A stretch of 64,000 nt of DNA from Schmidtea polychroa (Eukaryota): contig CM097885.1 in NCBI GenBank assembly GCA_044892525.1, positions 248,001-312,000 on the forward strand. Direction: 5' to 3'. A program made the position numbers and the translations under genes. The notes under the pieces are model-generated. The model was not told the origin of the DNA, did no database searches, and worked only from the letters and a program-made list of their open reading frames with translations. Below, piece after piece: positions 3,607 through 50,850 of this stretch (position 1 is the stretch's first letter; every line of letters starts with the position of its first letter).

Positions 3607-3652
<46 letters not shown>

Positions 3653-3774: not shown

Positions 3775-3826
<52 letters not shown>

Positions 3827-4501: not shown

Positions 4502-4609
<108 letters not shown>

Positions 4610-4659
4610 ATTGTTTAAAAAACTTAAAAACCTCAAAAACGTATAACAATAAATAAATA

Positions 4660-12204: not shown

Positions 12205-12795
12205 ACGCTTTTTGTTTACTAAATAAACTTTTTAATATATTTGTAATGTTTTGGTGATAAATTAAGGTCAATGAATTTTGTAATGTTGGGTTATTTGATT
12301 GGTGGTAATATTTAATTGTTGCCAATCAAATAGTTTCTATTAAAAGTTTCTATTTTATCAATCTAATTACTTATTTACAAATATTTCAAATTTTCTCTAT
12401 TGTTTGGTTCTGAATTATTTTCTCGATCAGTAAATGTTCTGATTCCATTAAGAAAACGACCTCACTTTCCCGACAGTTATGATAATTAATTTCTTTCATC
12501 CCTGTCCTCTCCATGTTTTGTACAGTTTCTGTATTATCACTAATATTTCTGCGTTCTGGAGAAATTGTGATTTTTTCATTTTTGTTTCTGGAATTTTCTA
12601 AACCTTTTTCTATTTCATCATGTTGGAGATGCTGTTTTTGTGTTTGTTTTCCAACTTTGGAATTTGTTTTTGATTTCTTGAACTTATTAATTAGCAATTA
12701 CCTTTCTCCGCTCTGTTGCCTGATTTCTTTTATTTGAACCTCTCCCATTTCTCAATTACTTTCTCTCCTGTTTTCTTTTTCAGGTTCTAGAGTCC

Positions 12796-15700
12796 TGTTG
12801 GCGTATGTGGGGAAAGAGAAAATATGCCCACCTGATCATCATACATCCCAAGTACTCTCTTCCGCTCCGATACTTCCCATACATACTCCAAAATGATCAA
12901 ATACATATTCCCACGTATGAGCCCGTGGTGGTGTTCCACGTTGGTGCTGCTCACACGGGTTGGAAAAGGTTAGCAGGTGAGCCCCTGCCTTAGGACTACT
13001 CCTAACCCTTTCTCGGTTCGGGTTCCATGGTGCCATAGAAGGTCTTACCCGTTTCTTCGCTCCTAATTCAGTCCAACCCTGGTCCAAAGGGACGACATTT
13101 GCGCTCGTACTATGTCTCCAGGAGCACCTTTTACTCAAATCAACCACAGCAAATCACACATACCATGAAAAAAAAAATCAAAGACTTCAAACAGTTGTAT
13201 TAAAGCGAAACATAAAAATACATTCACCATTAATTAAATAAGAACAAAACATCAAAGGTCATGTACAGGATAACGTCAACTTCTCCGAGTTCCTTCATAC
13301 CGCACAAAGATTGAGACAAATGAGAAAAAGGAATTCATTACGAAAACACTTCTCCTTCTGCGATCATTTCGTCAATGTCGACGGGCAACCGGCGATCTTC
13401 GAGGAATTTGATGCCGTCGGCCGGAACTACCCGAAATACTTCTTTCGTAGGGATAGAATGGGTGATTGTAATTTCCTTGATCGTCGATTTGGCTGCAGAT
13501 AACGATGCCTCGAGCGCGGCCATGGCGTTTCTGCGCTTCTGATTTTTCTCTGAGCGCGTCGGTCTCTTACGCTTTCGAGGTGGAAGAGTGGCTCCTGCTG
13601 GAGGCCGCGTGAGTGGCGACGCGAGGACTGGAGCCAAGATAGGGTCCGATGGACCGCCAGCCATAGGCCGATAGCCAGAAAGAACTGGGGCGGGAATTGG
13701 TGGCAATTGTAGGCCGTGTCCCTTGCAACTGATGGTTGATGAGGTTTCAGTGGATTGATGGTGTTCCGGGAACACGTTAGTCCCATCTTGTATTGGGTAT
13801 TCGCGAACTCGCTTCGCTATCTCGGATTCCGAATATACTTTGTGCAGTGCCTCTGATTGGGCTTTTATGGTTAGCCTCTGGCATCTGCTCTCCTCCAGGA
13901 GACTGTCACGGCAGTGCTCCAAACGTAGAATTTTTCTCTTCTCTTCCTTCATTTGTGGCGGGGAGAACCACGTGCCTTCGTAAAGGTCGATTCTTTTCTT
14001 TAAAGCCCCGATGTATAGATGAAGCTGCGCGATATCTGCGTTTTTATCTGCGCAGGAGAAACATGGGCGAAGAGTTTTCTCAGCAGTTGTAGGAGTAGTC
14101 ATCTAAAGAATGAGAAGTCCTTTATTTACATCATTAAAATCCTTTCTACTATTTGTTTTCTTTTTATCGTGAGCTTTATCCTGCCACATGTGCATACAAT
14201 CAGGATTGTCCCCCACATCCATACCTTTGACATCACTTAACTCATCCAAACCGTAAACCTTCAAATCAACTCATCATATCGTTCGTAAGGAAGAAAAAAA
14301 AATGAGAACCATCACACGTTATTTCTCTACCCATATTGATATTGTACCTAGGTTCCTGGGTCGACAGTTATCATCTAATCGCAATCAGTTACTCCTTACC
14401 ACTAATATATTTTTTCACTTTTATTTATTATGACCCATTGAAGGTGTGTCTACTCCCTTGCTATTATGGCTTATTGAGTTATGCCTGCTTTAATTTAGAA
14501 GAAGTAGTTCCATGCTGTTGATGCATTTTTGCGCTGTGTTAGGTTAAAACGAATGTGTTAAAAATTATTGTAAGTATTAATTTCCCCCATAAATTATAAT
14601 TTAATTATTTAAATTTTCGCATTTTATGTTGTCATAACGACGCATATTAGTATGTAGTTGTGTACTGGTTTCAGACTCTACCTGATGTGCGCTAATGTGT
14701 ATTATTTAGTTTTACTCAATTATCGCTGTCCTCTCTTAGCAAATTCTAGACATTGTGTCGGTTAGTGTACTTGATCTCGTCGCTTATTTATGCATGCCTA
14801 CGGACACATGCTACTATGACGCAATGATGATGTCGACTCACTCACGTCCCATGTATTAGTGGATTTATCTGTGTGTGGGTTTGGGTCTGCTTATCTCAGT
14901 TATAACATTATTAGCAGATGGGCTAGACGAACGGAAGATAAGGAGTCAGACTTATAGAAATAACGATTGTTATGATTTCAAGATGGCCTAAATCTGTTAT
15001 CGGGTAGCAAATGGATTTAATTTCTATCTCTCTCGTGAATGTTGACTATTCTCAAAAACCTAATCGTTTCATCGACTTGGCGCAAATCGTTCCACAATCG
15101 AACCGCTGGAATATTTTATCTACGCTACTTGCCTCTCTGCAATAGTCGTTTCTCGATCAGATGGAAAATTTATTGATAATTTGTTCGGAATGGTCGATGA
15201 AAATTTCCTTTAGGACTGTAGTAAGTGCTTATGATTAATTAGAACTTTGCTGTTTACTTTCCTGTCAGGACGAATCCTTATCGATGACAGTAGCTAATCG
15301 AAGGTTGATAACTAAGTCTCCTACTCGTCCAATAACATATCACCGCGACGGGTTGAATCGCTAACGTTCTCTTAATTTATCAATTCTTGGAAATATAGAA
15401 TGCTCCAGATTTTTTATCATTCATCAAGAAAACGAAAATGGACGTTAGAATTATCAGTGAGGTTCGAGAATTTCATTACCCTCAAGGATAGTCGGTGTTC
15501 ATATTCTGACGAAAAGAAGTCACCTAGCTCTAAATTGAATATGGCCGAACTCAAACTCGGATTAAATATCGAGAAATGTCGTCAATCTCCTAGAATTTTC
15601 AGTCAGCACGTTGTCGGCATCGAAACAGTATCGCTCAGAAGTTTCCTCAATCGAAAGTTTGCGACGGCTAATTCTCCAGATAGCACTCGATGAAAGGATC

Positions 15701-17040
15701 ATTGACTCGATTCGTTTTCTCTCACAGGGTTTCCTCACCCCTCACAACCCACCCAAGGACAGTACGCATTTCTGCCCACTGCCCTTGGACCGTCGTGAAG
15801 GACAACTCGACCCGACTTATCTCAAATCCTTCTCCAATAAATGTGCAATTAATAAATTCATATATGATCAAACAAATATGGGAATAATGAAATTAAAAGA
15901 AAAATCAAATAAATAAATGTTTACCTGGTGGCCACGCCAGCCGGATTCTGGGTATGATGACTCTTGCTAACGTAGGTTTTTACATTCATTTAGCAATCAT
16001 TGTAATACTAATATCCATGTAGATACTTGGCTGGTTCGGTCAGTGCAATTTCTGAGTATTCATATTCATAAGCTCTCTCTGAAAATGCATACGTAATTTA
16101 GCCGCATCATACCCGAGCTCCAGAGGACGTCGTCGCCAGCATCATAGAGAGAAAGCAACATCTTTTGGTTTTAAATATAAATTTTATTGAAAAATAAAAC
16201 GTCTTTTGATATTAAATTCATAATAAACATTAAAAATATCATACTAAAATTCAAAACATAATTTACCAAAATTCTCCGAAGGTGTTGAGATTGAAATCAA
16301 AGTCTTGTAAATTTTTCCTTAACGTTTTATTCTTCTCAACTGGATTCGATCTCGACTATTATCTGCCTCTAAGTAATATCTGTTATGTCCAAGTATGAAT
16401 ATTGTTCGTAAGTCTGTGCTCGTGAGTGGTTCCTAGCTTAGTCCTGTAGAGTTTCGGGTTAGAATGATAATTTTAAATAAATTTTACCTGTAGAGTTTCG
16501 GGTTAGAATGATACTCTACAGAGTTTTGTTGCTCTTTATATATATTTTTCCGTCCAATCAGGACACACCTTGCTTGTAATTTTGTTATTTATTATTATTT
16601 TATGTTTTTTCTTATCGTAGTATATTATATTTTAATGACCCTACCTATTTCTATTATTGTTTTATTTATTTTCCTATTTTTTATTATTTTTCTCCTATTT
16701 TTCTGTGGTTTTATTGCTATTTTATTTGTAACTTCATTTTTTGTTTTAATTAACCTTATGGATGATTTTATTTTTATTTTGTTTTCCTTTAGTTTTCGTT
16801 TGTTTTTCTTAAATTTTGTGCCATTTTATTTCTCTTTTACTGTTGTGCTCATTGGGTGCCTTCCCTTTTGTCTTATTTCCCCTTTACAGGTTTTGTTATT
16901 TTATTTAGTTATTCTTGTTTCTTTATGGATGTTTAATTTGTTTCTTCCTATGTTTCTCGTAATTTTTATATGTTTTTATTTTATTTACTCTATCTCTTCC
17001 TGGGTTCGTTTTTCCAACACCTTCAGAGCTTGGCCCAACA
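12796..17040 (-). repeat. 3' LTR (4245 bp)
   Basis: Direct repeat of 39113-42807; begins TGTTGG, ends CCAACA. Confidence 0.97.
13338..14102 (-). CDS. 254 aa protein encoded inside the LTR (CxxC, coiled coil, Pro-rich, basic NLS-like PPRKRKRP)
   Basis: ATG directly preceded by the acceptor-like TTCTTTAG; intact only in this LTR copy. Confidence 0.6.
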   Translation of the reverse strand: MTTPTTAEKTLRPCFSCADKNADIAQLHLYIGALKKRIDLYEGTWFSPPQMKEEKRKILRLEHCRDSLLEESRCQRLTIKAQSEALHKVYSESEIAKRVREYPIQDGTNVFPEHHQSTETSSTISCKGHGLQLPPIPAPVLSGYRPMAGGPSDPILAPVLASPLTRPPAGATLPPRKRKRPTRSEKNQKRRNAMAALEASLSAAKSTIKEITITHSIPTKEVFRVVPADGIKFLEDRRLPVDIDEMIAEGEVFS

Positions 17041-17295: not shown

Positions 17296-17955
17296 TTATG
17301 TTTGTTGTTCGGTTGCCGTTGATGATGGATGATTTGGTTGTTGGGTTTCGATGTTGTAGTATATTCGGCGACTTGTGGACGGTCTGACTGTTTCTGCGAT
17401 GGAGGTTCGTTGTCGGAGATTTTCTTGGATTACGTCAGCCATATTAGCTTCTTGGGATCTTCGAGACGATCTTTCCGGTACGGGGTGACTTTTCTTCCAA
17501 ACTTGGTAGATATTATGGATTTTTAGGAGGATGATTACCATGATTACGGTGGTTTCGACGATTACCACGTAGAGGAGTTCATGGTGGTCATTTATTTCTT
17601 TGGCGATTTCTACTGGTTCGACTGGGTTTTGTATTTCTTGATGTTGGACCTGCTGTTCTAGCTGATCGAGTTGGTGAATTTGGTCCAGGATTCTTTTATC
17701 AATGATTTTGCACATGGGGTGGTTATTATAGATTAATCTGATATTGTTGACGTACGTTCGGGTAACTCGAATGTTGTCGGTAAGACGGGTTTTTATGATA
17801 CTTGGATAGAGGCATGATTTGGCTGTTGGTTCGGTCTTTTGGTGGGATTTTCTGCTGTCTCGAATATGTTCAATTTCGGGCTTTACGGGTTGTCGCCTTG
17901 TCAGATCAAGGATTATTGTCATCATCAGAATTATTATGATTGGTTTGTTTTTCAT
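17296..17955 (-). CDS. Accessory ORF: predicted type I membrane protein
   Basis: N-terminal hydrophobic run (PIIIILMMTIILDL), second hydrophobic run (LLYVVIVETTVIMVIILL), acceptor ATATCAG just before the ATG at 17955. Confidence 0.7.
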   Translation of the reverse strand: MKNKPIIIILMMTIILDLTRRQPVKPEIEHIRDSRKSHQKTEPTAKSCLYPSIIKTRLTDNIRVTRTYVNNIRLIYNNHPMCKIIDKRILDQIHQLDQLEQQVQHQEIQNPVEPVEIAKEINDHHELLYVVIVETTVIMVIILLKIHNIYQVWKKSHPVPERSSRRSQEANMADVIQENLRQRTSIAETVRPSTSRRIYYNIETQQPNHPSSTATEQQT

Positions 17956-18014
17956 ACTACTGATATACATTTAGTAATTTTACACACATTTATATACATC
18001 GCTTTTTGTCGGTT

Positions 18015-18722
18015 TTAATTTTGTCGTTTCTTTTTAGGGTTTTTCTCCCGGATTCGCATTAATTTAGACTCCGCTTTAATGACTCTATGTCGGAGTTCCG
18101 GCAACATTTCTAGTTGCCTCTCTTTCTCCTGGACCTTGTCTGTCAAGTGTCTTATCTCTCTTTTCAAGGTTTTTATCTCCTTCTTCTTTTCTTTCAGGTT
18201 CCGTTCCAGTTCCAATTGTAGGAAATCATTTTCCTCTGGGTCGTTTGTCTTTGAGTTTTGTTTCTGCCGTTTTGTTTCTATTTCTCGATATTTACTATTC
18301 CATTTCTCCATTTCTGTACTTTCTTGTACTTTTACTTCCAGCTGGTTTTCCAACTCCTTGATGGTTTCTTGTCGTTTCCTTGCTTCCGTTTTCCAATAAT
18401 CTTCGATTACTTCGTTTTCCTTGAAACTGGCTCTCTCCTGCCATAATTCTTCCGCGATCTTTTCCCAATTTCTCCCTCGCTTTCTTTGTTCGTGAAGCCA
18501 TTCGTTTTCTACTTCTACTTCTTTCTTTATTTCCTCCAATGTTTTGCATTCCCTTTTTAGCACCTTTATCATTCTTCGATCATCCATATATTTGTCTATC
18601 ATCCTTTCTTTTTCCTGTTTCTCCTCTATCAACTCGTCCTTCGGCGTTTTCATTTTTATGGGGTCTGTTTCAATTTCTCCCTCTTCTAGCTCGGTCATGG
18701 TGGATATTTCTTCTATTTTCAT
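18015..18722 (-). CDS. Accessory ORF: coiled-coil protein
   Basis: E/K/R-rich heptads; likely start MKIEEIS after the acceptor TTGTAG. Confidence 0.75.
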   Translation of the reverse strand: MKIEEISTMTELEEGEIETDPIKMKTPKDELIEEKQEKERMIDKYMDDRRMIKVLKRECKTLEEIKKEVEVENEWLHEQRKRGRNWEKIAEELWQERASFKENEVIEDYWKTEARKRQETIKELENQLEVKVQESTEMEKWNSKYREIETKRQKQNSKTNDPEENDFLQLELERNLKEKKKEIKTLKREIRHLTDKVQEKERQLEMLPELRHRVIKAESKLMRIREKNPKKKRQN

Positions 18723-18883
18723 GTCTACAATATTTACAATTAATAGTGCGCTACAGTGCGGCTTATACTTATACATTTATAGGTAATTTTATATAATCAG
18801 GGTAAATATTTTTATCGTACTAATAATTTTTTGTTGGGATACAGGTCCCGATTTTTTATATATTTTATCTTTTCCATTTATCT

Positions 18884-19921
18884 TTATGCAAAGGTTTCTT
18901 CCTGGCCTACGTATCCCTCATCGCTTTCTACTGACGTTTGTAGTTGGAGTGCGATGGGATCGAATGGGATGTAGTACCGGGGAATCTGCGCTCTAAGCTC
19001 CTGAACTTCGTCTCTTAGCGCTCTTGACACGTTGAGTTCCTCGTCCAACAGGTATGTTAGATACCTGGTTTCGTCGTCCCTTACCTCGATCTGTTTTTCT
19101 AACTCCTCCGCCTTTTCGCCGTTCTCCCATTTTTTGATCTCCTTTTCGAGGTTCTTGATATTTTCGTCATACATCTTTCTCTCGTTTTCCAATTTCTTGT
19201 TCTTACCGGCTAGCACTATATTCCTTTGTTCTAGTGCCCCCTTATAGCCGTTATTGTCTCTTTCAAGATCTGCCACCTTGTTTACGAGTTCGACGATTCT
19301 ACCTGACTGTTGTAGGATCATCTCTTCCATGGCGGTATTCTCCTGTTCCTTTATAGACAGTTTCATGGCCAGATGCCTTTCAAATTCCATGGCCTTGGTC
19401 TGCCAGGTTTGACTTCTAGCTGCTACTTTCCGGAGCCTTCTTAGCTCTTCTTTCTGATCCAGGTTTTCTTCCCATTTCCCTTGATTACTCTCGTGTTCCA
19501 ATCTCTGCGGTAATTCTCTCATCTCTTTTTGGATTTCTCGATGTTGTTTTTTCCACTTTCTGGCTTCTGCTAGTAGTTGGCGGGTCTTTCTTTCCTCCTT
19601 TTGTTTTTCTATTTCCCGCTTCTTATTCTCATCCGTTAGTCTTTTTCTTGACTCTTGTACCAGCTGCTTCAGGTAATGCCCGTGTGCCTCTTGCCTGGTA
19701 TTTTCTAATGCCGACCATTTGGCGGCTCTTTTGCAGGCCTCGGCCTCCGCCCGTAAATTCTGTACTAACCACTGGAACTGGTGGTTTTCCCACTCTCTTG
19801 CCTCCTCGAGGTAATTTCGTGTTTGATTTGATAATTGTGCCATCACTTTGGCCCATCTTTCTCTATGTATTCTACTGATGTTTATTTCGTTATTTGGGGC
19901 TTCCGTTTGATCTTGAGTCAT
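18884..19921 (-). CDS. Accessory ORF: 345 aa coiled-coil protein
   Basis: Long uninterrupted ORF, heptad pattern, acceptor TATTTAG 6 nt before the ATG. Confidence 0.8.
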   Translation of the reverse strand: MTQDQTEAPNNEINISRIHRERWAKVMAQLSNQTRNYLEEAREWENHQFQWLVQNLRAEAEACKRAAKWSALENTRQEAHGHYLKQLVQESRKRLTDENKKREIEKQKEERKTRQLLAEARKWKKQHREIQKEMRELPQRLEHESNQGKWEENLDQKEELRRLRKVAARSQTWQTKAMEFERHLAMKLSIKEQENTAMEEMILQQSGRIVELVNKVADLERDNNGYKGALEQRNIVLAGKNKKLENERKMYDENIKNLEKEIKKWENGEKAEELEKQIEVRDDETRYLTYLLDEELNVSRALRDEVQELRAQIPRYYIPFDPIALQLQTSVESDEGYVGQEETFA

Positions 19922-20139
19922 CTTTGTCTAAATAACGATATCATTAACTCAACGTTGTACGCTTATATCTGGTTTATTATTTATTTATTTTTACAATTCG
20001 TTATAGGAGTTGTTTTAGAAGTTTTACGCTTAAGTTTACTTTTAGTAGATTTGGGGGATTTTTCTACACTACTATATAATGTTTTACGGGGTATATATGC
20101 CGATATTTACAATTAGTATATACAAAATTATTCGTCTCT

Positions 20140-21528
20140 CTACTCAGTCCTACTCTTCCCGTCTCGCCTCACCGCTATTTTTATGTATATAGTGTCGTTT
20201 CTCGTCATGTCTTCTACTTTCCGCTGTAGGATGAAATTCGGTGCTCCAGTTGCTGGTCCTTCTTCTTCCAAGGGCCTTTGGTAACATACGAGGTTTCCCG
20301 CTGTATGGAAACTCTGTTCATGTATACTTTGATAGTTCATCATTGCGAGGTCTATTTTTGCTTTGAATGGCCATTCTATTAACTCGTCGTATAGCCCTTT
20401 GCACATCAAGAAAAATACTGAGAAATGCGTTCCGTATGCACTTCCATCCCCATTGGGGTATGCTTTCATTTTCATTTTATACCCGTTTTTCCATGAGTAG
20501 AATGCTGGACTTAGTAATGTTGTATCCTTTCCATTTCTCGCTCTCTGCATCTTCTCTTTTACTCCCGTTATTTTCCATATGTATGGCGCCGTTGGTATTA
20601 ATTCGTTGAGGTTTAATTCGCTTACTCTTTGATGTAGTTCTTTCACCATAATGTTGCTAGTTTCCACTAGGTCTGTCTGTATCTTTGTACTTGTTCTCGC
20701 CTCCTCAAATGCTTCCTTTTCTTCCAATAACTCTTTTACCAACGCTTTTAGCGAGACCATTTCTTTCTCTAAGTTTTCGGTTTTCCTTTCGTTTTCTTGT
20801 AATACCGTTGACCATATTTCCGCGTGTGTTGATACGTTTTCTGCTAGATGTTGGGGTAATTCTCCTCGGTGTAATTGTTTCTGACATCCCCATTTTCCTA
20901 GCACACACGTTATCTTTTTCCTTTCACATTCTCTGAGATGTTGAGCGAGTCTTATTACTCCAGATTTATCGCATTTATTGGGACATTCTCCTCTGAACCC
21001 TGCGCACACTTTCTCCTCTTGTATGTTGTGATGTTGACTGATTAATTTTTTCCAGGTGTCGGTTTCTCCGCAATACTCACATTTCTCCAGTCTTTCTTCG
21101 CATCGACTTTGATGTTCTGCTTCTTCATTGACTTTAATCTCTTCTTGGCAACGTTTGCATTGACTGATTTTATATTCACATTGCTCCATATGTTGCCTCA
21201 CTTCCCATATCCCTCCTCGCCAATTGCATGGGGTGTTTTTACATCCTAAATTTGAATTTAACATATCTTTCACGGCTGCTTTATCTTCGTTTGTATCTCC
21301 CAAACTTGTTATCATGGTTTCTTTACATACTGGGCACCATTGTGGTCCCTTCTTTATTATCTCCTCTACACATTCTCTGCACATTCTGCATCCACATCTG
21401 GTTTGGTGAGGTTCTCTTAATAAGCTCTTGCATATTCCACACGTTACATGGTTGTGTATTCGAATTGTGGTGGACTTTCTGACTTGTTCAACAATTTCTT
21501 TGAATTCTTCTCGTTGTCGCTTATCCAT
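20140..21528 (-). CDS. TRAF: TNF receptor-associated factor (TRAF)-like E3 ligase/adaptor, intronless
   Basis: RING (CGIC..LLREPHQTRCGCRMCRECV..CPVC), several TRAF zinc fingers, coiled coil, MATH domain (YIWKI..LLSPAFYS..GYKM..YPNGDG..GTHFSVF..GLYD..WPF..NDTIYIK). Confidence 0.95.
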   Translation of the reverse strand: MDKRQREEFKEIVEQVRKSTTIRIHNHVTCGICKSLLREPHQTRCGCRMCRECVEEIIKKGPQWCPVCKETMITSLGDTNEDKAAVKDMLNSNLGCKNTPCNWRGGIWEVRQHMEQCEYKISQCKRCQEEIKVNEEAEHQSRCEERLEKCEYCGETDTWKKLISQHHNIQEEKVCAGFRGECPNKCDKSGVIRLAQHLRECERKKITCVLGKWGCQKQLHRGELPQHLAENVSTHAEIWSTVLQENERKTENLEKEMVSLKALVKELLEEKEAFEEARTSTKIQTDLVETSNIMVKELHQRVSELNLNELIPTAPYIWKITGVKEKMQRARNGKDTTLLSPAFYSWKNGYKMKMKAYPNGDGSAYGTHFSVFFLMCKGLYDELIEWPFKAKIDLAMMNYQSIHEQSFHTAGNLVCYQRPLEEEGPATGAPNFILQRKVEDMTRNDTIYIKIAVRRDGKSRTE

Positions 21529-21617
21529 TTCTATAATTATATATATACATATATTCGTTACTGGTACAGTTTCGTATTTTTATTTACAGTTATTTACATT
21601 GCTATTTTAGGTTATAT

Positions 21618-21977
21618 TTATTGGCTGGAAGAGTCGGCCTCTTGTCCGCCCTCTTCCCTACTGGTTAACCATTCTGACCAGTCTTCTATCTCCTCTCGCT
21701 CCATCTCTTCCGCGATTCTTATTAACTCCTCTTCTTGCACCTGGCTGTATCGTGATATTCGGTCTATCTCTCGCTGCATTTGTTCTATTTTTATTCGTTG
21801 GTCTTCGATTATTCTTACATAACTGAAGCCTTTATTTAAACTTTCGACTAAGCTTCTTTGTACAGCGAGTCCTTGTTCCTGTAAATTCGAAATCACTTGA
21901 GTTAACATTGCACATTGTTGTTTCCACATTTCCTCGGTTGTCGTACTGTGATTTACTTCCTCGCCTATTCGCTCCAT
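21618..21977 (-). CDS. Accessory ORF: small acidic coiled-coil protein
   Basis: Open frame between pol and TRAF; first ATG at 21977. Confidence 0.6.
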   Translation of the reverse strand: MERIGEEVNHSTTTEEMWKQQCAMLTQVISNLQEQGLAVQRSLVESLNKGFSYVRIIEDQRIKIEQMQREIDRISRYSQVQEEELIRIAEEMEREEIEDWSEWLTSREEGGQEADSSSQ

Positions 21978-22145
21978 TCTTAATTTATATATACTTTTCA
22001 ACCCTTATCCAATTTTATTTTTATATTATTTATCCCCATCGTTATATAATATTGATACCGCGGTTATATAAAAATATATCATACTGTTATATAAATAAAT
22101 ATTATCTACTTACTTTTTACAATCTATATACAGTCATAATCCTTT

Positions 22146-25100
22146 CTATATACGTGAGCTTGGAGGGCGCTGAGCATTCCAGGCCTCCACCCACTGTTCC
22201 TGCTTGATATTACTTGGTCGTTTTACATGATGTTGAAAATTTCTTATTCTGGCCATTTCTAGTTCTCCGCGATGCCGTCTATCTTTGATTATTTTTATTG
22301 TCCCCCCCGTTATGATTAAAAAGGCCCCTGTTATTATTATGCCGCTGATCCACATCATCTGTTTTACGCTTATAATTTCCGCTTTTTCCTTGTTCATTAT
22401 TGTTGATATTGCCTCTGTGCTTTTTAGATTACCGTCTTTGCCATTTCCTTTTATCATTCCTCGTATTCTTGCTATTTCCTCGTTCATACCTTCCTTTGCC
22501 ATTTTTTGTATTTTCTCCATCTCTTCCTCTGATACATAATTGACCTGATATTTCTCACCGGTTTTCTTGCGTTTTCCTTGCTCATCTTTTTCATCATTGA
22601 TTTTTCTTTTCTTCCCTCTTTTCCCAGGGTATCGTCGACATTCTCTTTCTGGACCGTTTCTCAGGATATAGACCGTATATTCCTTTGGTGGTTGTTGTTG
22701 CGTTACGTATTGTAGACAATTTTCTCCTGGTCCTAGCCTTGAAATACACACTTTGTGCTCTTTTCTTGGTTGAAGCTGTGTTATCACTATTTCACCTCCT
22801 TTACTTAGGTGTACCTCTTTCCATTTGACTTTTGTTATTTTCTTCCCGTTTCGATGTTGGTATGCTTCTTGTATTCCCACTTCCGTTATTGGTTCTGCAT
22901 CTTCATTTTTTAACACTAGTCTCTGATAAGCTCTAGACATACATCTTCCTAATATACACCTTTCTTTTAAATCCCATTCCTCTTTTAGATCCCATTGCTG
23001 CTCTTGTACTTGTTTTTTCTTTTCTTGTTTTAGTTCTTCCTCTTTGTTGTCCTTATTTTCCGTTTCTTTGGCTTCTTTTATCGTTCTCATTCCTCCCTGG
23101 GCTGTTATCATTTCCACCATTGTTAATACGAGTATCATTATCATCATATTTGTCTCCATTTCTTTGTTGGTAAAAAGTAGACATACCCTCTGTTTTCCAC
23201 TATTCGTCTTTTCTTCTTGCTTTATTCGGTTTCTCGGGTTATTTTCCTCTTTTTTCCTACTCGCGTCGTTATTTTCTTGATTATTCTCCTCTGATTTCTC
23301 TTTCTCTTTATTCCCGTTTCGACCTTTTTCGTTATTATCGTCGTCTTTATCGTCTTTATCTCCCCCGCTATCGTTTAAAATGTCGTCCTCGACATTTATA
23401 TCATTCAACAATCTGCGGTATGCCGTTAGCACTCTGTTTCTTGCTAATTTTGCTTCGAATTCGAACTCCTTTCTGCCTGTTGCTACATGTCTCTTTCTTT
23501 TCCATTCTTTCACTAATTCTCTTAATTGTATCCGACGATGTTTTCCGATTCGCTTTTGTTCGTTTAGATTCTGCGTGAATTTGAGATCTTCCCTGTTTAA
23601 TACGATCATTATGATTTTTGGAGTTCCTCCTTTTGTTAGTGTATTTTTAACCATAGCATTTTCTCCGTTTTCGTAAAACTCATTTATATTTATTGCATAT
23701 TTATTGCTTTGCGGTATTTTCCATGTTAACAATAACTTCATGGCTTCTAAGCTCATCCGTATCGTGTTCCATTGGAACTGCGACGTGTTTTTACAGATAT
23801 TTTCTACCTCAGTTCTTGTAGCATTTTTACAAATGAATCTAATCATTTCCAAGTTTGGTTGTATTGTTGCCCAATCCATGGCAGAATTTCCTTCGTTTGA
23901 TATTTCGTCAAGTCTCGAACCTGATTGATGTAGTATATGTAAGGTTTTCGGGTGTATCTTTGTTATTGCTGCATACATCATTGCTGTTTCTCCTTGTTCA
24001 TTTTTTGCATTAGATTCTTCTCCCAAGTCTCTAAGAATTCTTATGATGGTTATTGCTCTGTTTTCTTTTGCTGCTAAAATGGCTTGTTGTAATGGTGTTC
24101 TTGAATCTTTTGTTGGTAAGGTGAATGCTAGTGGTATAAATGCTTTTATTTTTCCTATGTCTAGATTTGTGGTCTGGTCTCTCGCGTAGGTGTGTACTGC
24201 TTTTGTTATTTTTGCTAGTATCGCTTCATCGGATAGATCTTGCATTTCTTCAAAGAATACTTCTTTAGCCTTACGTATTACTATCTCTTGGTCGGAGTTT
24301 ATTATCTTTGGTTTACTTGTTGTTGCTATATCGCTTATTATTTGATCGACTCGTTTCTCAGACTCTCTTACTGTTATTTTCTTGATTTTTATCTTTTTCT
24401 TGTTCGAACTGTTAATGCGTTCCTCTGCCGTTAGAACTTGAATAATACTTAGGTAAGTTTCTCGAATGTTATTCATATTTTCCATCATATATAATACACT
24501 CACGGTTTCCCAAAATTTTACTTGTACTTTATCGGTAAATTGAGATATAGCTTTTTCGAAGTCGGTAATTCGTTTTCTGATTAGTTGTTCGTCTTTGTGA
24601 TTTGAGAACTTTATGCCACGTTGTAGTAGTTGATTTGGAATTTCGAATAGGTGATGTCCTCTCATCGCTTCTCTCATCAAGGTGTTTTCTCCTTTGGTAA
24701 ATGTTTCGTTTATATCTACCATATAATCGTTTTTGATCGGGTTCCTCCATGCAATTAGTAATCCAGCAATTGTTATTAATTTCTCTTTGATTGCAGTTAA
24801 TAGCCCGTCATACATGTTTCCTATCTCCCTATTATCCTCGTATGATAATAGATCTACTAAGATTATGAAGGCTTTCGTACTTTTCCCTTCGATTGCATGA
24901 TGTAGTGCATTTTTCTGGTTGTCATCCTGTGTGGTTATCTTTGACCCAGTTTCAAGTAATGCGATAATAATATCTTTAGCTTTATCCCGATTGGCTGCTA
25001 TCATTAGTGGAGTGTAACCTTGGTTGTTTTCTTGATCCGTCGAAATGTTACAGTCGCGAAATGCTTCGATCGTTTCCAGTATTTGTTCATTATTCCCGAC

Positions 25101-28100
25101 CTTTAAAAGTTTGTGCAGCGGTGTATCTCCATAATGGTCTGTGATCGTAAATAATATAGGCCATTGACTTTTTACTACCCTGAGTAATGGGTGTGTTCTT
25201 TCTCGGTTTGCATAGTTTTCGATCATGGTTAGCAGACCTCCCAATATCTCAAAATCTAATCGGTCTTTTGCCCATCCGGGCATTTTAGCTTTCACTTCCT
25301 TTATGATTTTCTCGGCTTCTGATGGTTGTAACCCCAATCGGTTACCTGTTGGTTCGTTTATCTGCTGTAACATATTTATTCTATATGTTTGTGATCTTGT
25401 TGTTAATGTTCGCCCTTCCGGCTGGCTGGTGGCTGTTTTCGGTATTGGCTTACATCGTGCCACATTTACATATATTGGCCTCGTGAAGGGGTTGTTTACC
25501 AATCGTACTCTCACATTGGTTTCTCCGACGAATAAAATCTCATACGGACCTTTACCGTTTCGTTGTAATTTTTTGGTGGTTCCTGGAATTAATTCTGGTG
25601 TTTCGATCATCACCCAATCACCGGTTTGAAATGTATGTTGTTTAACGTTTTTCTTTCTATCATGCAGATCTTTGTAACTTTCCTGATAAAACTTTATATT
25701 TAATCCCGCAGTTTCCCAGATTTCTTGCATTCTTTCCTTGAACTTGGTTACATAATCGTCTATTTCCATGTATTGTGATATTGGTGGCTGATATTCTAAA
25801 TCCATTGGCATATTGCATTCTCTGCCGTACATCAACTTAAACGGACTCATCTTTGTGGACGCGTGAATCGACATTCTGTAAGCCATTAAACATAATTTTA
25901 TATACTCGTCCCAGTCGCGTTGATGGCGATCGACGTAATTTGATAACATTTGAATCAGTGTTCCATTGAATCTTTCTGTCATACCATTAGTTTGTGGATG
26001 GTACGGTGATGTTCTTAATTTTGCGATCTTGAAGTAGTTGGTGACTTCGCTCATTATTTCACTCATGAAGTTTGTTCCTTGATCAGTTAATATCTGTTTT
26101 GGTGTTCCATATCGACAGCATATCTCCTCTACTAGTATTTTTGCGATTGTTCTTGCTTTCTGATCTGCCATAGCGAATGCTTCGGGGAATTTTGTCAAAT
26201 AATCTGTGATTACCAATATATATATATATATATTCCCTCTATCTGATTCTGGTAGTGGACCGACTACGTCCATTGATATCACTGTCATTGGTTCTGCTGG
26301 TACTGGCATTGGCTTTAATGGTGCCTTCCATTTTGTTCCCGTGTTTTTTCTGGTTGCGCAGGTTATGCAATTTTTCACCCATTCCGTTACATCCTCGGTC
26401 AATGTAGGCCAGAAGTATTTTTGTTTCATTCGTGCCAACGTCTTTTTAGATGACATATGTCCTCCGAGTCTTCCGTCATGGTATTGTGTTAGCAGATCTT
26501 TACGTCTATTCTCGGGAATGCACATCAGTCTTTTCTCGCCATCCATTATCAATAACCAATCTTTCTCTATTATATATCGATGTCGATGTTTATCCATGTG
26601 CTCTTTCAATTTTTGATCTTTCTCATATACCTCTACTTTCCCTGTTTTCACATATTCAATGATTTGCTTCAACTCTGTATCCTCTTGTTGGTCTTTCCGT
26701 AATTGGCAAAAATCTAAATCTTCCGCCACCATCAGACATATTCGTTGCATTTCGTGATCTACTAAATCTGGAAAGATAAATCTTGACATACAATCTGCAT
26801 TGGCATTCGCTCTTCCCGCTTTGAATTTTATGAACGGTGAATATTCTTGTAACTGCATTGCCCATCGCATCAATCTACTTGAAGCTTCTTTGTGTTGGCC
26901 AAGCCATACTAGTGGTTGATGATCTGTTGTGATACATATTTCGTGTCCCCATAACAAATATCGAAAATGTTTAATCGCTTGTATAATTGCTAACGCTTCT
27001 CTCTCGGTTACGGAATAGTTTTTCTCATGCTTTTTAAACGTTCTGCTGTAGTATCCAATCACTCTTTCTTTTCCTTCTTCATCCAGTTGTCCTAATATTG
27101 CTCCGGCTGCATATCCACTTGCATCTGTTGCTAATAAGAACGGTTTCTTGAAATCAGGATGTACCAGTATTGGGGCTTCAATTAATTTATCTCGCAATGT
27201 CTCAAATGCTTTTTGTTGTTCTGCACCCCAAATAAATGAAATATCCTTTTTCACTAATTCCTGTATTGGTTTCGCAATACCTGCATAGTTTTTGATGAAT
27301 TTTCGATAATATCCGCATAATCCGAGAAATTCTTGAACTTGGGTGACAGTTTTTGGTGCTGGACATGTTTTTATTTTTTCTATGTTTCTTGGATCTGGTT
27401 CTTTGCCTTTTGCTGACACTATGTGTCCTAAGAACGTAACTTTTTCTTTTGCCCAATCACACTTTGATGGTTTGAGTTTCAATTTCCATTGTCGTAATCG
27501 AACGAACACGTTTCTGATATCTTCCAAATGTTGTTCGAATGTTGCTGAATATATTAATAAATCATCAATATATACCATGCACTGCTTGATCCCGTGCGTG
27601 ACGAAATTCATACATCTCTGAAATGATGCTGGGGCATTGGTCAGTCCAAATGGCATTTTCCTGAATTGATACAGGTCTCGACCCAACGTGAAGGCCGTTT
27701 TCTCCTTGTCTTCCTCTTTAACTTTGATCTGCCAATATCCGCTTTTTAGATCTAAAGACGTAAAATATGCGGCCCCTTGCAGCATAAGTAACATCTCATT
27801 GATGTCTGGTAACGGGTATGTGTCTCTTTTTGTTACTGCATTTAGTTTCCGATAATCGATACAGAATCTCTGGGTACCGTCTTTTTTCTTCACCATGACT
27901 ACTGGAAATTGCCATGGCGAACAACTTGGTTCGATCACTTGTGCATCTAGCATTTTTTGTACTTCTGCTTCGGCTATCTCTTTTTGCTTCTCTGCTAGTT
28001 TGTATGGACGTAGTGCGATTGGAGTTTCGTCTATTAATGGTATTGCGTGTAATGTAACATCGCATGCTCCCAAATCTAAGTCCGAAATAGCGAATATATC

Positions 28101-29945
28101 TTTATATTCTATCAATAATTGTTGAAGTCTTTCTTTTTCCTTTTCCGTTAGCAATGTGCTATCGATTGTCCATAATTCGTCAGCTTTCGTTGTTTCATTG
28201 GTGATTTTTGGTAATTCGATGTCTATCATGGGTGTCAATCTACCCAATCTTTCATTTTCATATATGATCTTGTCTTCTTCCTCGAAATTTGTGATGTTAA
28301 TTGGTATTTCCCCTTCGTCATTAATTGTTATTATTTCTCTTGCTAATGGTAATTCTCGTCGTTTTTCGAATGATTTGCTTGGCTCAAAAATGGCTTCTCC
28401 TTCCATTCCTGCATCCACTTTTATTTGACATATCATCTGGGATTTTGCTGGTACAATTATTTTCTCCGGACATCTGATTATTGCGTTCATTTTGCATATT
28501 CTACCCATTTTATCTTTTAGGCACATTGTTGTTAGATCTATTACTACTTCTTTGAACAATTCCGGCATTAAATCCGTTCCGATTATACATGGTTCACTCA
28601 GTTTGGGTATCACCGCCAGATACGTTTCAATTTCATTATCTTGATATCGTAACGTAGTCCACCATCTTCCTACTACGTCTACGGTTTCTTTACTGCATGC
28701 AATAATATGGATAGTTGTTTGTTCGATGTCTTTCCAACATTTACTGGGTATTTGGTTTATTGCTATTGCTGATACATTTGCTCCGGTATCTATCATTGCG
28801 CTTGTCTCTTTCCCGTTGATTTGGATCATGACTGTTACTGCCGCGCCTCCTGGTGAACTCATTACTGCTATTGTTCTGACGTCATCCGCTTGGTCTACAC
28901 TTTTCGTTCTTCGGGTCGGCATATAGTTCATACCTGGTTGACTTGGTAACTGTGGATACATATTTTGTGTCATGGTCAAAGCTGTTTGTTGTCCAACGAT
29001 ATCTGGTGGTATATAACTTCCGTTGGCTATCCAGGTATTCGTTTTTTCTTTCTCCCAAAATGGTGCTGTTTCTATTGGCTTTTCATTCGGGTTTCTACTT
29101 GGATATGGATATTTGTCATTCCCATTGTCGTCATCATCACTATCGCTGCTGTTTGATCGATTTCTAAATCTGTCTAAAAATTTTGGTTTGTTCTTTTTCA
29201 GTTGTGTCCTTGTTGCTTCATCATACATTGTTTTCCGAAATCGTCTACCGACTTCCTCGTCAGTCCCTTTTATTTTTGTCAGTATTTTTATTAATCGTTT
29301 TATTCTGTGTATATCTTTAGAATGACCGTGTAACACCATTGTTTTTGCCAAAAATGGTAGAAAACCTACTATCAACTTCCAATTTACTTTCTTTTCTCTC
29401 TTATAGATATCGAAACACGCTAACATTTGAGTCAATATTACTCTGACAATCTGAATAATTAAGATGATTCCCAGTATTCCTGCCATCATTTGACCGAACA
29501 CTAGAAATCTTCCCCACATTGCTTTCATCATGTTTGACGTGGCTTGTTGAAAATGATCGGGTGACAATAATAGTTCGTAATTGGGACCTGATTGGAAATT
29601 CGTTCCCCCAGTTATGGTAACCATATTTGATAGAATGGATTCTCGCCTTGCTGGGAATAGTACGTTTAGTCGTGCCGTTTCTAAATCCTCTGCTGAGTAC
29701 ATACCTGCTTTTGACACATCAATTGGTTTGAAATCTTGCTCCGTTGCGAGTTCTATTAATCCAAACTTTTTAGGCTCTTGTACTTCGGTTTTTACCGGTA
29801 ACATTATCCATTTCCCATCGGGTTTTTCATATAACGGTCCGTATGCATTTGAACAGTTGAAGGTGTTCGGATAAAATCCAATTGGGTTCATAATTCTAGT
29901 GACGGGTTGAACGAATCTGTTTTGCCCTTTGTAACTAATTTCCAA
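22146..29945 (-). CDS. pol: Polyprotein part 2: Env C-terminus/TM - aspartic protease - RT - RNase H - integrase - ankyrin repeats - C-terminal membrane protein
   Basis: IDTGA (28782-28790), YIDD (27561-27572), TDASG..YSVTEREALA..TDH, HHCC + D,D,E + GPY. Ankyrin motifs (GDTPLH, GYTPLMIAA, KNALHHAI, RTPLQQAI, GETAMMYAA, GNSAMDWA) at ~23600-25170. Hydrophobic segments at ~23100-23147 and ~22290-22357. Confidence 0.95.
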   Translation of the reverse strand: MEISYKGQNRFVQPVTRIMNPIGFYPNTFNCSNAYGPLYEKPDGKWIMLPVKTEVQEPKKFGLIELATEQDFKPIDVSKAGMYSAEDLETARLNVLFPARRESILSNMVTITGGTNFQSGPNYELLLSPDHFQQATSNMMKAMWGRFLVFGQMMAGILGIILIIQIVRVILTQMLACFDIYKREKKVNWKLIVGFLPFLAKTMVLHGHSKDIHRIKRLIKILTKIKGTDEEVGRRFRKTMYDEATRTQLKKNKPKFLDRFRNRSNSSDSDDDDNGNDKYPYPSRNPNEKPIETAPFWEKEKTNTWIANGSYIPPDIVGQQTALTMTQNMYPQLPSQPGMNYMPTRRTKSVDQADDVRTIAVMSSPGGAAVTVMIQINGKETSAMIDTGANVSAIAINQIPSKCWKDIEQTTIHIIACSKETVDVVGRWWTTLRYQDNEIETYLAVIPKLSEPCIIGTDLMPELFKEVVIDLTTMCLKDKMGRICKMNAIIRCPEKIIVPAKSQMICQIKVDAGMEGEAIFEPSKSFEKRRELPLAREIITINDEGEIPINITNFEEEDKIIYENERLGRLTPMIDIELPKITNETTKADELWTIDSTLLTEKEKERLQQLLIEYKDIFAISDLDLGACDVTLHAIPLIDETPIALRPYKLAEKQKEIAEAEVQKMLDAQVIEPSCSPWQFPVVMVKKKDGTQRFCIDYRKLNAVTKRDTYPLPDINEMLLMLQGAAYFTSLDLKSGYWQIKVKEEDKEKTAFTLGRDLYQFRKMPFGLTNAPASFQRCMNFVTHGIKQCMVYIDDLLIYSATFEQHLEDIRNVFVRLRQWKLKLKPSKCDWAKEKVTFLGHIVSAKGKEPDPRNIEKIKTCPAPKTVTQVQEFLGLCGYYRKFIKNYAGIAKPIQELVKKDISFIWGAEQQKAFETLRDKLIEAPILVHPDFKKPFLLATDASGYAAGAILGQLDEEGKERVIGYYSRTFKKHEKNYSVTEREALAIIQAIKHFRYLLWGHEICITTDHQPLVWLGQHKEASSRLMRWAMQLQEYSPFIKFKAGRANANADCMSRFIFPDLVDHEMQRICLMVAEDLDFCQLRKDQQEDTELKQIIEYVKTGKVEVYEKDQKLKEHMDKHRHRYIIEKDWLLIMDGEKRLMCIPENRRKDLLTQYHDGRLGGHMSSKKTLARMKQKYFWPTLTEDVTEWVKNCITCATRKNTGTKWKAPLKPMPVPAEPMTVISMDVVGPLPESDRGNIYIYILVITDYLTKFPEAFAMADQKARTIAKILVEEICCRYGTPKQILTDQGTNFMSEIMSEVTNYFKIAKLRTSPYHPQTNGMTERFNGTLIQMLSNYVDRHQRDWDEYIKLCLMAYRMSIHASTKMSPFKLMYGRECNMPMDLEYQPPISQYMEIDDYVTKFKERMQEIWETAGLNIKFYQESYKDLHDRKKNVKQHTFQTGDWVMIETPELIPGTTKKLQRNGKGPYEILFVGETNVRVRLVNNPFTRPIYVNVARCKPIPKTATSQPEGRTLTTRSQTYRINMLQQINEPTGNRLGLQPSEAEKIIKEVKAKMPGWAKDRLDFEILGGLLTMIENYANRERTHPLLRVVKSQWPILFTITDHYGDTPLHKLLKVGNNEQILETIEAFRDCNISTDQENNQGYTPLMIAANRDKAKDIIIALLETGSKITTQDDNQKNALHHAIEGKSTKAFIILVDLLSYEDNREIGNMYDGLLTAIKEKLITIAGLLIAWRNPIKNDYMVDINETFTKGENTLMREAMRGHHLFEIPNQLLQRGIKFSNHKDEQLIRKRITDFEKAISQFTDKVQVKFWETVSVLYMMENMNNIRETYLSIIQVLTAEERINSSNKKKIKIKKITVRESEKRVDQIISDIATTSKPKIINSDQEIVIRKAKEVFFEEMQDLSDEAILAKITKAVHTYARDQTTNLDIGKIKAFIPLAFTLPTKDSRTPLQQAILAAKENRAITIIRILRDLGEESNAKNEQGETAMMYAAITKIHPKTLHILHQSGSRLDEISNEGNSAMDWATIQPNLEMIRFICKNATRTEVENICKNTSQFQWNTIRMSLEAMKLLLTWKIPQSNKYAININEFYENGENAMVKNTLTKGGTPKIIMIVLNREDLKFTQNLNEQKRIGKHRRIQLRELVKEWKRKRHVATGRKEFEFEAKLARNRVLTAYRRLLNDINVEDDILNDSGGDKDDKDDDNNEKGRNGNKEKEKSEENNQENNDASRKKEENNPRNRIKQEEKTNSGKQRVCLLFTNKEMETNMMIMILVLTMVEMITAQGGMRTIKEAKETENKDNKEEELKQEKKKQVQEQQWDLKEEWDLKERCILGRCMSRAYQRLVLKNEDAEPITEVGIQEAYQHRNGKKITKVKWKEVHLSKGGEIVITQLQPRKEHKVCISRLGPGENCLQYVTQQQPPKEYTVYILRNGPERECRRYPGKRGKKRKINDEKDEQGKRKKTGEKYQVNYVSEEEMEKIQKMAKEGMNEEIARIRGMIKGNGKDGNLKSTEAISTIMNKEKAEIISVKQMMWISGIIITGAFLIITGGTIKIIKDRRHRGELEMARIRNFQHHVKRPSNIKQEQWVEAWNAQRPPSSRI

Positions 29946-35900: not shown

Positions 35901-35992
35901 GTTATGAACGTTGCCAACTTGTTCGCATTCCCGTTAAACGGTTCGCCTCTAAATTTTTCTTTATACTCGTCGGTTTTTACCACATTCATCAT
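29888..35992 (-). CDS. gag: Polyprotein part 1: Gag (capsid, 3 CCHC knuckles) - ubiquitin-like domains - Bcl-2-like domain - envelope glycoprotein ectodomain
   Basis: Retrotransposon capsid motifs (PFNG..F..F..GW..L..SA..W..F..RKQ..ESI..Y..FIEGL) and three CX2CX4HX4C at 35087-35239. The frame stays open without an ATG up to ~36415. Env-like part starts after the hydrophobic MMTMMIWMLCTSGAAG at 31207. Confidence 0.9.
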   Translation of the reverse strand: MMNVVKTDEYKEKFRGEPFNGNANKLATFITNFEVYIDVCGWTAEAISKRMPLFLCDSALEVYLEAKERNTKLDNWENIKTFLRKTFGASKPINQALGELASRKQRANESITLYASELRRLATKAMNGNLPEENLIGYFIEGLRREEVRASVGCQMCKTLEEAIDWATRCELHLPAQMNVMQEEGRIAAATAKTENGDNNNHEPKMNQFIPGAHQIFKPPQGRSNGNNSERNNSNNGNNFNNRRNTNDNKQCRTCGKPGHWYRDCYRNANCNRCGRRGHTENICQLRGCFNCGQPGHISRDCRERGQQQRPPQRNNNYAPNPQRQSNPSEGKQMNVMQEISQMKQMMQQMMRPRQEPVPQQTQNIRLMRSTENLNNYEVQQHAQEWQRLQAEEERIKRERIQQRQEQPLRINMMRMVKEIKEQYCYNYGKNPRVVPLIEPETPKETITEAKKENPTTPLKGNQRIQKIFWKKIKDKIEKEHEKIKTGVEAENNENEKQINHLNHNMIQELDSEELTIFENQKLKKVPRMRNLRINMMRTTKKVLSTDDDEDNVSSLGGEILQLNENIEQLKKKIGEDEEKSESDVASESEDENIEMKLRKEKEEAIKQVKEILPVVVRNQDFIDIIPYRRFIQKIMKLERNEKDLIPSEEKAIIKKYMEKIRNKIGTSKGLERIWIKNTVTDDLFDWIREHLGSSRKKEYLYQYQGEQIKPDMHLIDALIWPGETQILKLHKEKQPTNVHEWAKDAKAEYDFNIKLKLEQIKQCTLRRNLDKLIKQIQEQVEDNWDLLIARRTPDMHELMSRLRDTELLRMSDWRTINLIHKYGRLKETQPQKLEITIWLPNEEKRRIKMSNQSTVDDLVTKINQEITEKVRSESSDGMIDDVVMMYDKIILRAEDDTSLSEMGMWDNHQIIRILPMDEFRTRDVTYQKEIRDRMKTLYQKSVEIIEIHQQWLKEKELQGKIKKLSTRSCRRTPWERMWNAENKEWEVRKGIFVETDIGETESKSEEEEDEPPKYEEEEKEPVSDEESETDVTSESETETRHIHAMRKKEREYADMDSEEAMEAREREEKERYKQLGDILATGTKNQKRQVVALANIILKTSENIHNLREMAKAIEEYRQYNEWYPEQLEQIIRKWRNQEWAQDTQERYRIRVKYPDKSIEDIEVHPTTKIRELKKKLAYETPFHLQLFGKSLDDNADVGITPMRLGEINVLTMAETLGKPIKRKSKSSKTTKGSLSTPSPNKVASKSNETEEIEEIILEDSDEGAGERSPILVRWPTGAEIWTTSQPSTSYQQPNKLNIEEIIDNTTETETDEQFQRPKGPTKATPEGQTDKIIDEWNEWLRNNDSSLPRTDNERNPNYETTREAGTMMEKRAKGRPKKQGEKPEFKTREQLKQEQGQVRLKKLDKIVWDLKEAQPTIERGEKWIRELVKDMLIITNPQLRRLWQRKVASVDARQLWNTISGIIPKLIKEKTKTTKTDWEETRRVIEQLTLNANDDEHHLVVLTYLMYNLMGLAARKIPNKQFANHVEMTVTIIENTIEPHIIRAGGWKRLIQAPRKNEQERSMQIRLKKLLNELEWELPLKDPASRKASINSLMMTMMIWMLCTSGAAGFTIYDCDNSIIGERYSLRDIEECRQASPNKLDIVKKKVSYHVYQESDFIRTQARECVVSKKVLAYYCGQYSYSTLILPGLDKEIVPIQREDCKELFRTGAMRIRDGVTIHGQSGMIKTESIYVAGRVKSTDGSCNGGTYTIRGEVISGVVVIESYTVELKEYEAQFDANNYQMKTNPACRATENVCRTGISTIIYEANTQKCRLQLLKSALFNEVKGEIYENEDDDEENGNVRMRNGKPVPPSPKEKRLTTQKTPTALITDDPDIGMRFIREKETTECDSIVYRTNYAGIYMSRQVIDRAVGKVSTEDVKLYLYANNKMDFLFHRGQTTMQKVYYDLIQNDCSLNKEILKTKLAIAITHPDNTMPSLPLPDGHFGRMVGEVMYVPRRLRDCQENPQYHQGNAQTSWKLVTKGKTDSFNPSLEL

Positions 35993-39105: not shown

Positions 39106-39112
39106 AAAATCA

Positions 39113-50846: not shown

Positions 50847-50850
<4 letters not shown>

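Follow-up and report, generated by a model that had tools for sequence, protein, structure and literature searches.

An old TRAF gene is probably a selected accessory gene of giant Burro-type LTR elements in the planarian Schmidtea polychroa

We analysed a stretch of 64,000 nucleotides (nt) from the planarian Schmidtea polychroa (GCA_044892525.1, contig CM097885.1, positions 248,001 to 312,000; hereafter the window), in which an intact TRAF gene lies inside a giant retroelement bounded by long terminal repeats (LTRs). Sequence comparisons indicate that this TRAF is probably a long-standing accessory gene of a Burro-type element, derived from a planarian TRAF radiation with cysteine among its RING ligands where histidine is usual, acquired before three element families split and kept under selection (we put the probability of this reading at about 0.75). 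An ancient acquisition from the radiation with Cys as fourth RING ligand, followed by evolution as an element gene, is strongly supported.

The TRAF open reading frame (ORF) occupies window positions 20140-21528 on the minus strand as one ATG-to-stop frame of 462 amino acids (aa) plus stop, and was characterised by ORF reading, Pfam, matches to PDB sequences and alignment. The N-terminal RING (aa 30-68; 21325-21441) scored 22.6 bits with PF00097 against a cut-off of 21, and ligand alignment assigned all eight ligands to cysteine (C4C4), the fourth included (CGCRMC). These eight cysteines were retained in 30/30 best copies. Five Cys/His ligand sets between the RING and the coiled coil were read from the ligands as five TRAF-type zinc fingers (aa 96-235; 20824-21243), and the RING-zinc-finger fragment of TRAF6 matched aa 27-157 (phmmer, PDB sequences, E 1.1e-14). 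An alignment of six rows (the window TRAF, two further element TRAFs and three from the host) showed no variation at the eight RING ligands or in the five zinc-finger ligand sets, except for C127 in one row. A helical linker, probably a coiled coil (aa 243-312; 20593-20802), leads to the MATH/TRAF-C domain (aa 316-453; 20170-20583), which was detected with PF22486 (E 8.1e-25) and with the TRAF-C model PF21355 (88 bits against a cut-off of 27.4, E 8.4e-25, aa 336-450). TRAF3 (E 3.3e-28) and TRAF2 matched aa 243-453 (phmmer, PDB sequences), the TRAF3/TRAF2 matches to the MATH domain lying at E 1e-28 to 1e-25. These results bear out the initial annotation, made from the letters of the window, of a complete RING-zinc finger-MATH protein, intronless, within the boundaries of LTR repeats and with Cys in place of the usual His. 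The coiled coil that it also listed fared less evenly, since aa 243-315 align to the TRAF3 coiled coil but the heptad signal was weak (a/d occupancy 0.545 versus 0.436 in shuffles, equalled by 78 of 2000 shuffles in a weak test). No protein at ≥50% identity to the element TRAF was returned by a search of database representatives, and the protein-database homologues (ENA records) were TRAFs only 24-29% identical.

The carrier is a complete LTR element of 30,012 bp (12796-42807) with an internal region of 22,072 bp. Its 5' LTR (39113-42807, minus strand, 3,695 bp) and 3' LTR (12796-17040, minus strand, 4,245 bp) are direct repeats with TG...CA ends and 99.6-99.8% identity, and reading of the flanks gave a 4-bp target-site duplication, GTCC, at 12792-12795 and 42808-42811. 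It further combines a CCHC gag, the order protease, reverse transcriptase, RNase H and integrase (PR-RT-RH-IN), an env between gag and pol and a length of about 30 kb. By these sequence features the carrier is a giant Burro-type, Ty3/gypsy-like LTR element of endogenous-retrovirus-like character, likened to Burro/GYPSM1 by published description. The minus-strand order is 5' LTR, a 159-aa ORF, ORF1, ORF2, a 119-aa ORF, TRAF, ORFs of 345, 253 and 224 aa, and 3' LTR; the TRAF ORF lies 3' of pol and shares the strand of gag-pol. Its base composition (A 0.41, T 0.18, GC 0.40) resembles that of gag and pol, the values for host TRAFs being A 0.34-0.39, T 0.28-0.34 and GC 0.32-0.36.

Sister copies were then compared. 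With the TRAF protein as query, at least 92 full-length matches at 91-100% identity were found in the genome among copies drawn from 1871 first-look candidates, and 84 of these 92 had no stops. Colinearity with the window, starting in pol and extending past TRAF to about 18352, was seen in all of the 12 most diverged listed copies (12/12). A TRAF-independent sample was built from matches to the last 350 aa of pol (116) and to the downstream 345-aa ORF (117), which formed 91 pairs. The spacing between the two was 2203-2288 nt in 87 of the 91 (2228 nt in the window), and one further pair at 2376 nt was normal once a partial match was allowed for, so that 88/91 pairs had the right spacing. The TRAF ORF belongs to the standard make-up of the element. 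The claim that an LTR retroelement carries and multiplies a TRAF stands, and the check named in the initial annotation as one that could speak against it, absence of TRAF from sister copies, came out in its favour; rare TRAF-deleted derivatives do exist.

Nonsynonymous (dN) and synonymous (dS) divergence was estimated by the Nei-Gojobori method from 41 ungapped TRAF copies. Over the 820 pairs, mean dN was 0.0196 and mean dS 0.189, a ratio of 0.10. Copies at dS 0.2-0.43 from the window copy still gave dN/dS of 0.08-0.13 and contained no stops. In 12 diverged copies, dN/dS was 0.106 for TRAF, 0.106 for the pol C-terminus, 0.067 for the 119-aa ORF and 0.036 for the 345-aa ORF. These results strongly support purifying selection on TRAF about as strong as that on the C-terminal part of pol.

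A genome search with host-like TRAFs identified two further element families, B and C, the window element being family A. Family B (L049) yielded at least 105 TRAF matches, 95-100% identical to L047, of which 98 were free of stops, and the family C type comprised 84 dispersed rows with open frames of 470-483 aa, one of which (L050) was inspected. In both, the TRAF ORF stands at the same place behind pol as in family A. The order in family B is PR, RT-RH, IN with ankyrin, a 151-aa ORF, TRAF (474 aa) and an ORF with a BIR domain; in family C it is glycoprotein, PR-RT-RH-IN, a 333-aa ORF, TRAF (462 aa) and a homologue of the 345-aa ORF. Identity is 32% between the 119-aa ORF of the window and its positional counterpart in family B, the 151-aa ORF, and 69% between the 345-aa ORF and the ORF that follows TRAF in family C. 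Between families A and C, pol showed 94% protein identity (dN 0.032; proportion of synonymous differences, pS, 0.73, saturated) and TRAF 69% (dN 0.177; pS 0.75, saturated), while between A and B the identity was 89.5% for RT (dN 0.066) and 33% for TRAF (dN 0.65), with saturated pS in both. The TRAF protein has thus changed five to ten times faster than pol and is still constrained. Among the four parts of TRAF, the RING had the lowest dN between A and C (0.115 versus 0.178-0.247), the MATH and linker parts diverging faster between families. Since TRAF has this shared position in three families that are saturated at synonymous sites, the gene is older than the family split. Across the three families, we counted at least about 280 full-length element-borne TRAF frames, most of them intact.

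Host TRAFs were sampled from the same genome, where 87 zf-TRAF matches were obtained among the 150 scored of 909 candidates, many of them in tandem arrays on C1 and C2. Seven low-copy host TRAFs (L043, L044, L051-L055) carry RING to MATH on one exon, several of them without an in-frame Met before the RING, which makes a 5' exon likely in these genes. Three array TRAFs (L056-L058) have an intron before the MATH exon, and three further loci were seen only as a C-terminal exon. The arrays of short host TRAFs lie at G000 C1:68-78 Mb, C1:258-268 Mb and C2:3-4.3 Mb, and their members have a CGC RING, fewer zinc fingers, a coiled coil and MATH on a second exon. The CGC RING was present in 13/13 RING-bearing TRAF types sampled: one from each of the three element families, seven low-copy host genes and three array genes. 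A RING could be read in 80 database hits, of which 19 have Cys as fourth ligand and 61 His. Judged from these alignments, the Cys ligand is not special to the element and is common to host TRAFs of this genome. The best host match to the element TRAF was 28% identical (13 host loci sampled), and host CGC TRAFs as a whole were 26-31% identical to it.

Phylogenetic analysis recovered the element TRAFs as one group, with support of 98/91 in a 24-row tree and 94/91 in a 22-row tree. In a 39-row tree they formed one group with the database proteins P0019, P0025 and P0032 (SH-aLRT 100), whose best matches in this genome were 36% and 41-42%; with no close copy here, these proteins come from another species. 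The nearest named proteins are from the planarian Dendrocoelum lacteum, and in the 39-row tree the low-copy host clades include its TRAF-2 and TRAF-4. In the 24-row tree, the low-copy single-exon host TRAFs were the sister group of the element TRAFs (90/87), and in the 22-row tree the intron-bearing array TRAFs grouped with the low-copy host TRAFs (83/85). The phylogeny with host TRAFs proposed in the initial annotation therefore places the element genes in the same TRAF radiation as host genes, but as a clade separate from them.

Several explanations of this gene were weighed. It could be a neutral passenger whose frame is intact merely through the youth of its copies, given that the LTRs of the window copy are nearly identical and many copies are 96-99% identical; however, the copies at high dS retain low dN/dS and are stop-free, and the family C protein keeps 69% identity and a full-length frame at saturated synonymous sites, which leaves this explanation a negligible probability. 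The initial annotation had inferred capture via mRNA, and a scenario in which this element family recently took up the mRNA of a host TRAF, shortly before its copy burst, would fit an intronless ORF inside a retroelement that belongs to the same radiation as host genes and shares their Cys ligand. This did not hold up, as the sequence on either side of the TRAF ORF contains neither a poly(A) tract nor flanking direct repeats such as mark a processed copy, no intron-bearing parent of high identity appeared among the 13 host loci (the closest, at 28%, is distant and the nearest clades are single-exon), the base composition is that of gag and pol and unlike that of host TRAFs, and the same gene sits in the same place in families B and C at saturated synonymous divergence. 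Because the nearest host TRAFs are likewise single-exon from RING to MATH, the lack of introns is uninformative on the route. We regard a recent capture as highly improbable; capture, if any, occurred long ago in the ancestor of the three families. The direction might also have been reversed, with an element or viral gene coming first and some single-exon low-copy host TRAFs being domesticated element TRAFs. The sister grouping in the 24-row tree, whose rooting leaves direction undecided, and the CGC RING and five zinc fingers found in both element and low-copy host TRAFs are compatible with such a course, which nevertheless appears quite unlikely: TRAFs are ancient cellular genes, the host clades contain named TRAF-2 and TRAF-4 orthologues from Dendrocoelum lacteum (another planarian family), the low-copy host TRAFs have host-like base composition, several lack an in-frame start before the RING, suggesting a spliced 5' exon, and the intron-bearing array TRAFs group with them. 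Under the reading that we prefer, an ancestral element lineage gained a planarian TRAF before families A, B and C separated, and the gene has since been copied along with the element under purifying selection.

What the protein does for the element can be proposed from its conserved parts. The element TRAF is probably an active RING E3 ligase or adaptor acting on host survival or immune signalling, this being the likeliest mode because conservation is highest in the RING and at all zinc-finger ligands. A TRAF protein made from element transcripts would serve the element in this capacity, assembling by way of its probable coiled coil and its MATH domain and intervening in survival, stress or immune signalling that depends on host TRAFs. 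The ankyrin blocks, the IAP-type RING ORF and, in the sister family, the BIR ORF may act alongside it, and the outcome would be that expressing cells are kept alive or their responses blunted. TRAF2 works with cIAPs. A decoy or dominant negative, in line with the suggestion in the initial annotation, would instead join host TRAF trimers or take their partners and block signalling without ligase activity. The MATH domain, a helical linker of the kind that mediates TRAF oligomerisation and the faster divergence of both relative to the RING, as expected of a surface tracking changing partners, agree with this alternative. Against it, the families agree in all eight RING ligands and in the zinc-finger ligands, RING dN is the lowest, and classical dominant-negative TRAFs lack the RING. 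Conserved RING and zinc fingers with a looser MATH and linker would fit an inert decoy less well, and the most conserved part being the RING argues, as far as alignments can tell, against a passive RING-dead decoy; we consider a decoy unlikely.

Some observations weigh against a long-standing, selected element gene or limit how far its history can be read. Copies were ranked by protein score, both for dN/dS and for the TRAF query, so that decayed copies are under-represented and the intact share of 84/92 is biased upward; even with this ranking, such low dN/dS at such dS cannot result from neutral decay. The Pfam zf-TRAF model gave no match to the element TRAF even at E≤10, although PF02176 (zf-TRAF) matched the family B orthologue at E 1.2e-7. 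The host sample comprised 13 TRAF loci, whereas the zf-TRAF matches number at least 87. In the 22-row tree, the place of the element group among host groups was unresolved (support not starred); tree checks flagged long branches and odd amino-acid make-up in the family B and C rows, shared composition could help to draw the element rows together, and the trees do not decide whether the gene passed from host to element or from element to host. Furthermore, three of the 91 TRAF-independent pairs were shortened (926, 1538 and 1952 nt) by deletions in the interval. The shortest, copy L059 (G000:C1:82936100-82937300), has a clean deletion of 1320 nt (440 codons) corresponding to window 20165-21484, which leaves the first 44 and last 25 bases of the TRAF ORF. 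A copy can therefore exist without TRAF, the gene having been lost before or after insertion. The joint of this deletion (20163->21485) also occurred in one contig, of unknown kind, from sequencing run X4 when contigs were aligned to window 19500-39499; it was considered as an intron and rejected for its non-canonical ends, and L059 confirmed it as a DNA deletion.

The same was done for a second contig joint, 22032->38716 (runs X2 and X3), which skips 16,683 bases, has a short side of 21 letters and comes from contigs of unknown kind. Its ends are non-canonical, and it was read as a deletion variant rather than an intron; it may represent a candidate gag-pol-deleted derivative that keeps the leader and the accessory ORFs.

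The remaining parts of the window element were characterised as follows. A sequence resembling a tRNA primer-binding site adjoins the 5' LTR. The leader of about 3 kb between the 5' LTR and gag contains the 159-aa ORF (38199-38678, minus strand), whose C-terminal IAP-type RING matched Pfam zf-C3HC4_3 at E 1.7e-8 and was closest to the RINGs of cIAP1, cIAP2 and XIAP (PDB sequences, E 1e-8 to 2e-7); no BIR was detected in this ORF. With the RING of TRAF, the element thus encodes two RING proteins. ORF1 (29888-35992, minus strand, 2034 aa) comprises Retrotrans_gag, CCHC knuckles, then a long unassigned stretch that gives a faint hint of ubiquitin-like sequence, and finally the N-terminal part of a fusion glycoprotein. 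ORF2 (22146-29891, minus strand, 2581 aa) comprises the C-terminal part of the glycoprotein, protease, RT, RNase H, integrase and two ankyrin blocks. The accessory ORFs, all on the minus strand, are the 119-aa ORF directly upstream of TRAF (21618-21977; ORF reading), the charged, helical 345-aa ORF (18884-19921; ORF reading and Pfam), the 253-aa ORF (18015-18776) and the 224-aa ORF (17296-17970), the last three without a Pfam family.

The glycoprotein is of rhabdovirus type (Monjiviricetes) and lies in frame between gag and protease, at 29891-31213 in the window and at L050:7751-9901 in family C. PF24664 matched ORF1 at aa 1594-1798 and ORF2 at aa 11-164, and the family C protein at E 4e-64. 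A fusion glycoprotein intervening between gag and protease has already been described in such elements in the available text of PMC6431247. In the window copy, the gag-env-pol frame is broken into ORF1 and ORF2 at 29888-29891. Among the sister copies found with the pol C-terminus query, 41/116 had a frame of 4,724-4,817 aa reaching the end of pol, which corresponds to a single polyprotein as described for Burro1. A second MATH domain in ORF1, as described for Burro1, was found neither with Pfam at E≤5 nor by BLASTP. The 3' LTR contains 551 bases (13518-14068) without a counterpart in the 5' LTR, and a 254-aa ORF with no Pfam family (13338-14102, minus strand) spans them. In family B, the ORF directly downstream of TRAF (L049:8906-9901, plus strand) has a BIR domain (PF00653, E 5.7e-18), an arrangement of TRAF next to IAP.

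The DNA around the element contains ORFs of Maverick/Polinton type at 389-2736 (minus), 48492-50850 (plus), 52001-54436 (minus) and 61308-63725 (plus), with a protein-primed family B DNA polymerase (PF03175, E 5e-28 and 6e-32), an A32-like ATPase, an rve integrase and an endonuclease VII motif. In the AT-rich flanks, repeats with period lengths of 9-15, 21-22 and 144 bases form tandem arrays at 3279-4700, 57755-58224 and 58444-58876.

The element TRAF was further compared with known TRAFs and with regulators borne by viruses. Vertebrate TRAF2, TRAF3 and TRAF6 have the same order of RING, five zinc fingers, coiled coil (a probable one in the element protein) and TRAF-C; the element TRAF is about 25-35% identical to vertebrate TRAFs, carries Cys and not His at the fourth RING ligand and is encoded by a retroelement. 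It also differs from TRAF3 in the stretch aligned to the TRAF3 serines, which we take to be peptide-binding. The host CGC TRAFs (L043, L044, L051-L058, and TRAF-2/TRAF-4 of Dendrocoelum lacteum) have the same RING variant and domain order as the element TRAF, but differ from it in being single- or low-copy, in their host-like composition and in forming separate clades. Viruses carry regulators derived from cells, among them baculovirus IAPs, viral homologues of Bcl-2 and retroviral oncogenes, which likewise represent host signalling or survival genes kept under selection. These mostly belong to DNA viruses or are recent, replication-defective retroviral captures, unlike the element TRAF, an old gene located 3' of pol alongside gag-pol frames of full length.

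Publications have already described TRAF/MATH and RING motifs in Burro elements, and the present results refine a known thing. RNA of BURRO elements is reported to rise in smedwi-2(RNAi) animals (PMC8532177). According to the available text of PMC6431247, which cites Jurka 2007 and Grohme 2018, Burro/GYPSM1 are giant gypsy-like elements of Schmidtea mediterranea that carry RING, MATH_TRAF_C, BIR, ankyrin and BCL2-like motifs, with env between gag and pol, and are suggested to meddle with host apoptosis and ubiquitination. As far as that description goes, the window element shares with them a length of about 30 kb, LTRs of several kb, a CCHC gag, env between gag and pol followed by PR-RT-RH-IN, ankyrin repeats, RING, MATH_TRAF_C, accessory ORFs and many copies. 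The MATH_TRAF_C of Burro1 is described there as lying inside a polyprotein of 4,873 aa, whereas the window element has a free-standing whole TRAF ORF 3' of pol; a Dugesia tigrina element is described with MATH_TRAF_C in an upstream accessory ORF, again unlike the window element. We found in print neither a full five-finger TRAF as a free-standing ORF 3' of pol, nor the selection, age, single clade and shared CGC RING of the element TRAF, nor, in the papers searched, a link between element TRAF ORFs and the reported planarian TRAF expansion. An expansion of TRAF/MATH genes in planarians, of 121 to 282 transcripts, has been reported without explanation (PMC6109357, PMC7586133, PMC8807557), and transposons are unmentioned in the searched texts of these three papers. 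With at least about 280 full-length frames, TRAFs carried by elements exceed in number the MATH transcripts so reported (121-282). It is plausible that element TRAFs inflate TRAF counts; real host tandem arrays also exist.

A broader view, which we offer as speculative and rather unlikely, is that Burro elements would be retrovirus-like agents equipped with a working TRAF E3 ligase and a signalling toolkit of IAP-type RING, BIR and ankyrin, and that the TRAF expansion would consist partly of element genes counted as host transcripts and partly of a host response, in which arrays of shortened TRAFs serve as decoys or restriction factors in a long conflict. TRAF gene counts, as well as RNA interference or expression studies with TRAF probes, should separate element-borne copies from host genes. 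A RING-bearing TRAF under long selection in a retroelement offers a case for how retrovirus-like elements may manage cell survival, in an animal whose asexual strains use their stem cells as germ line.

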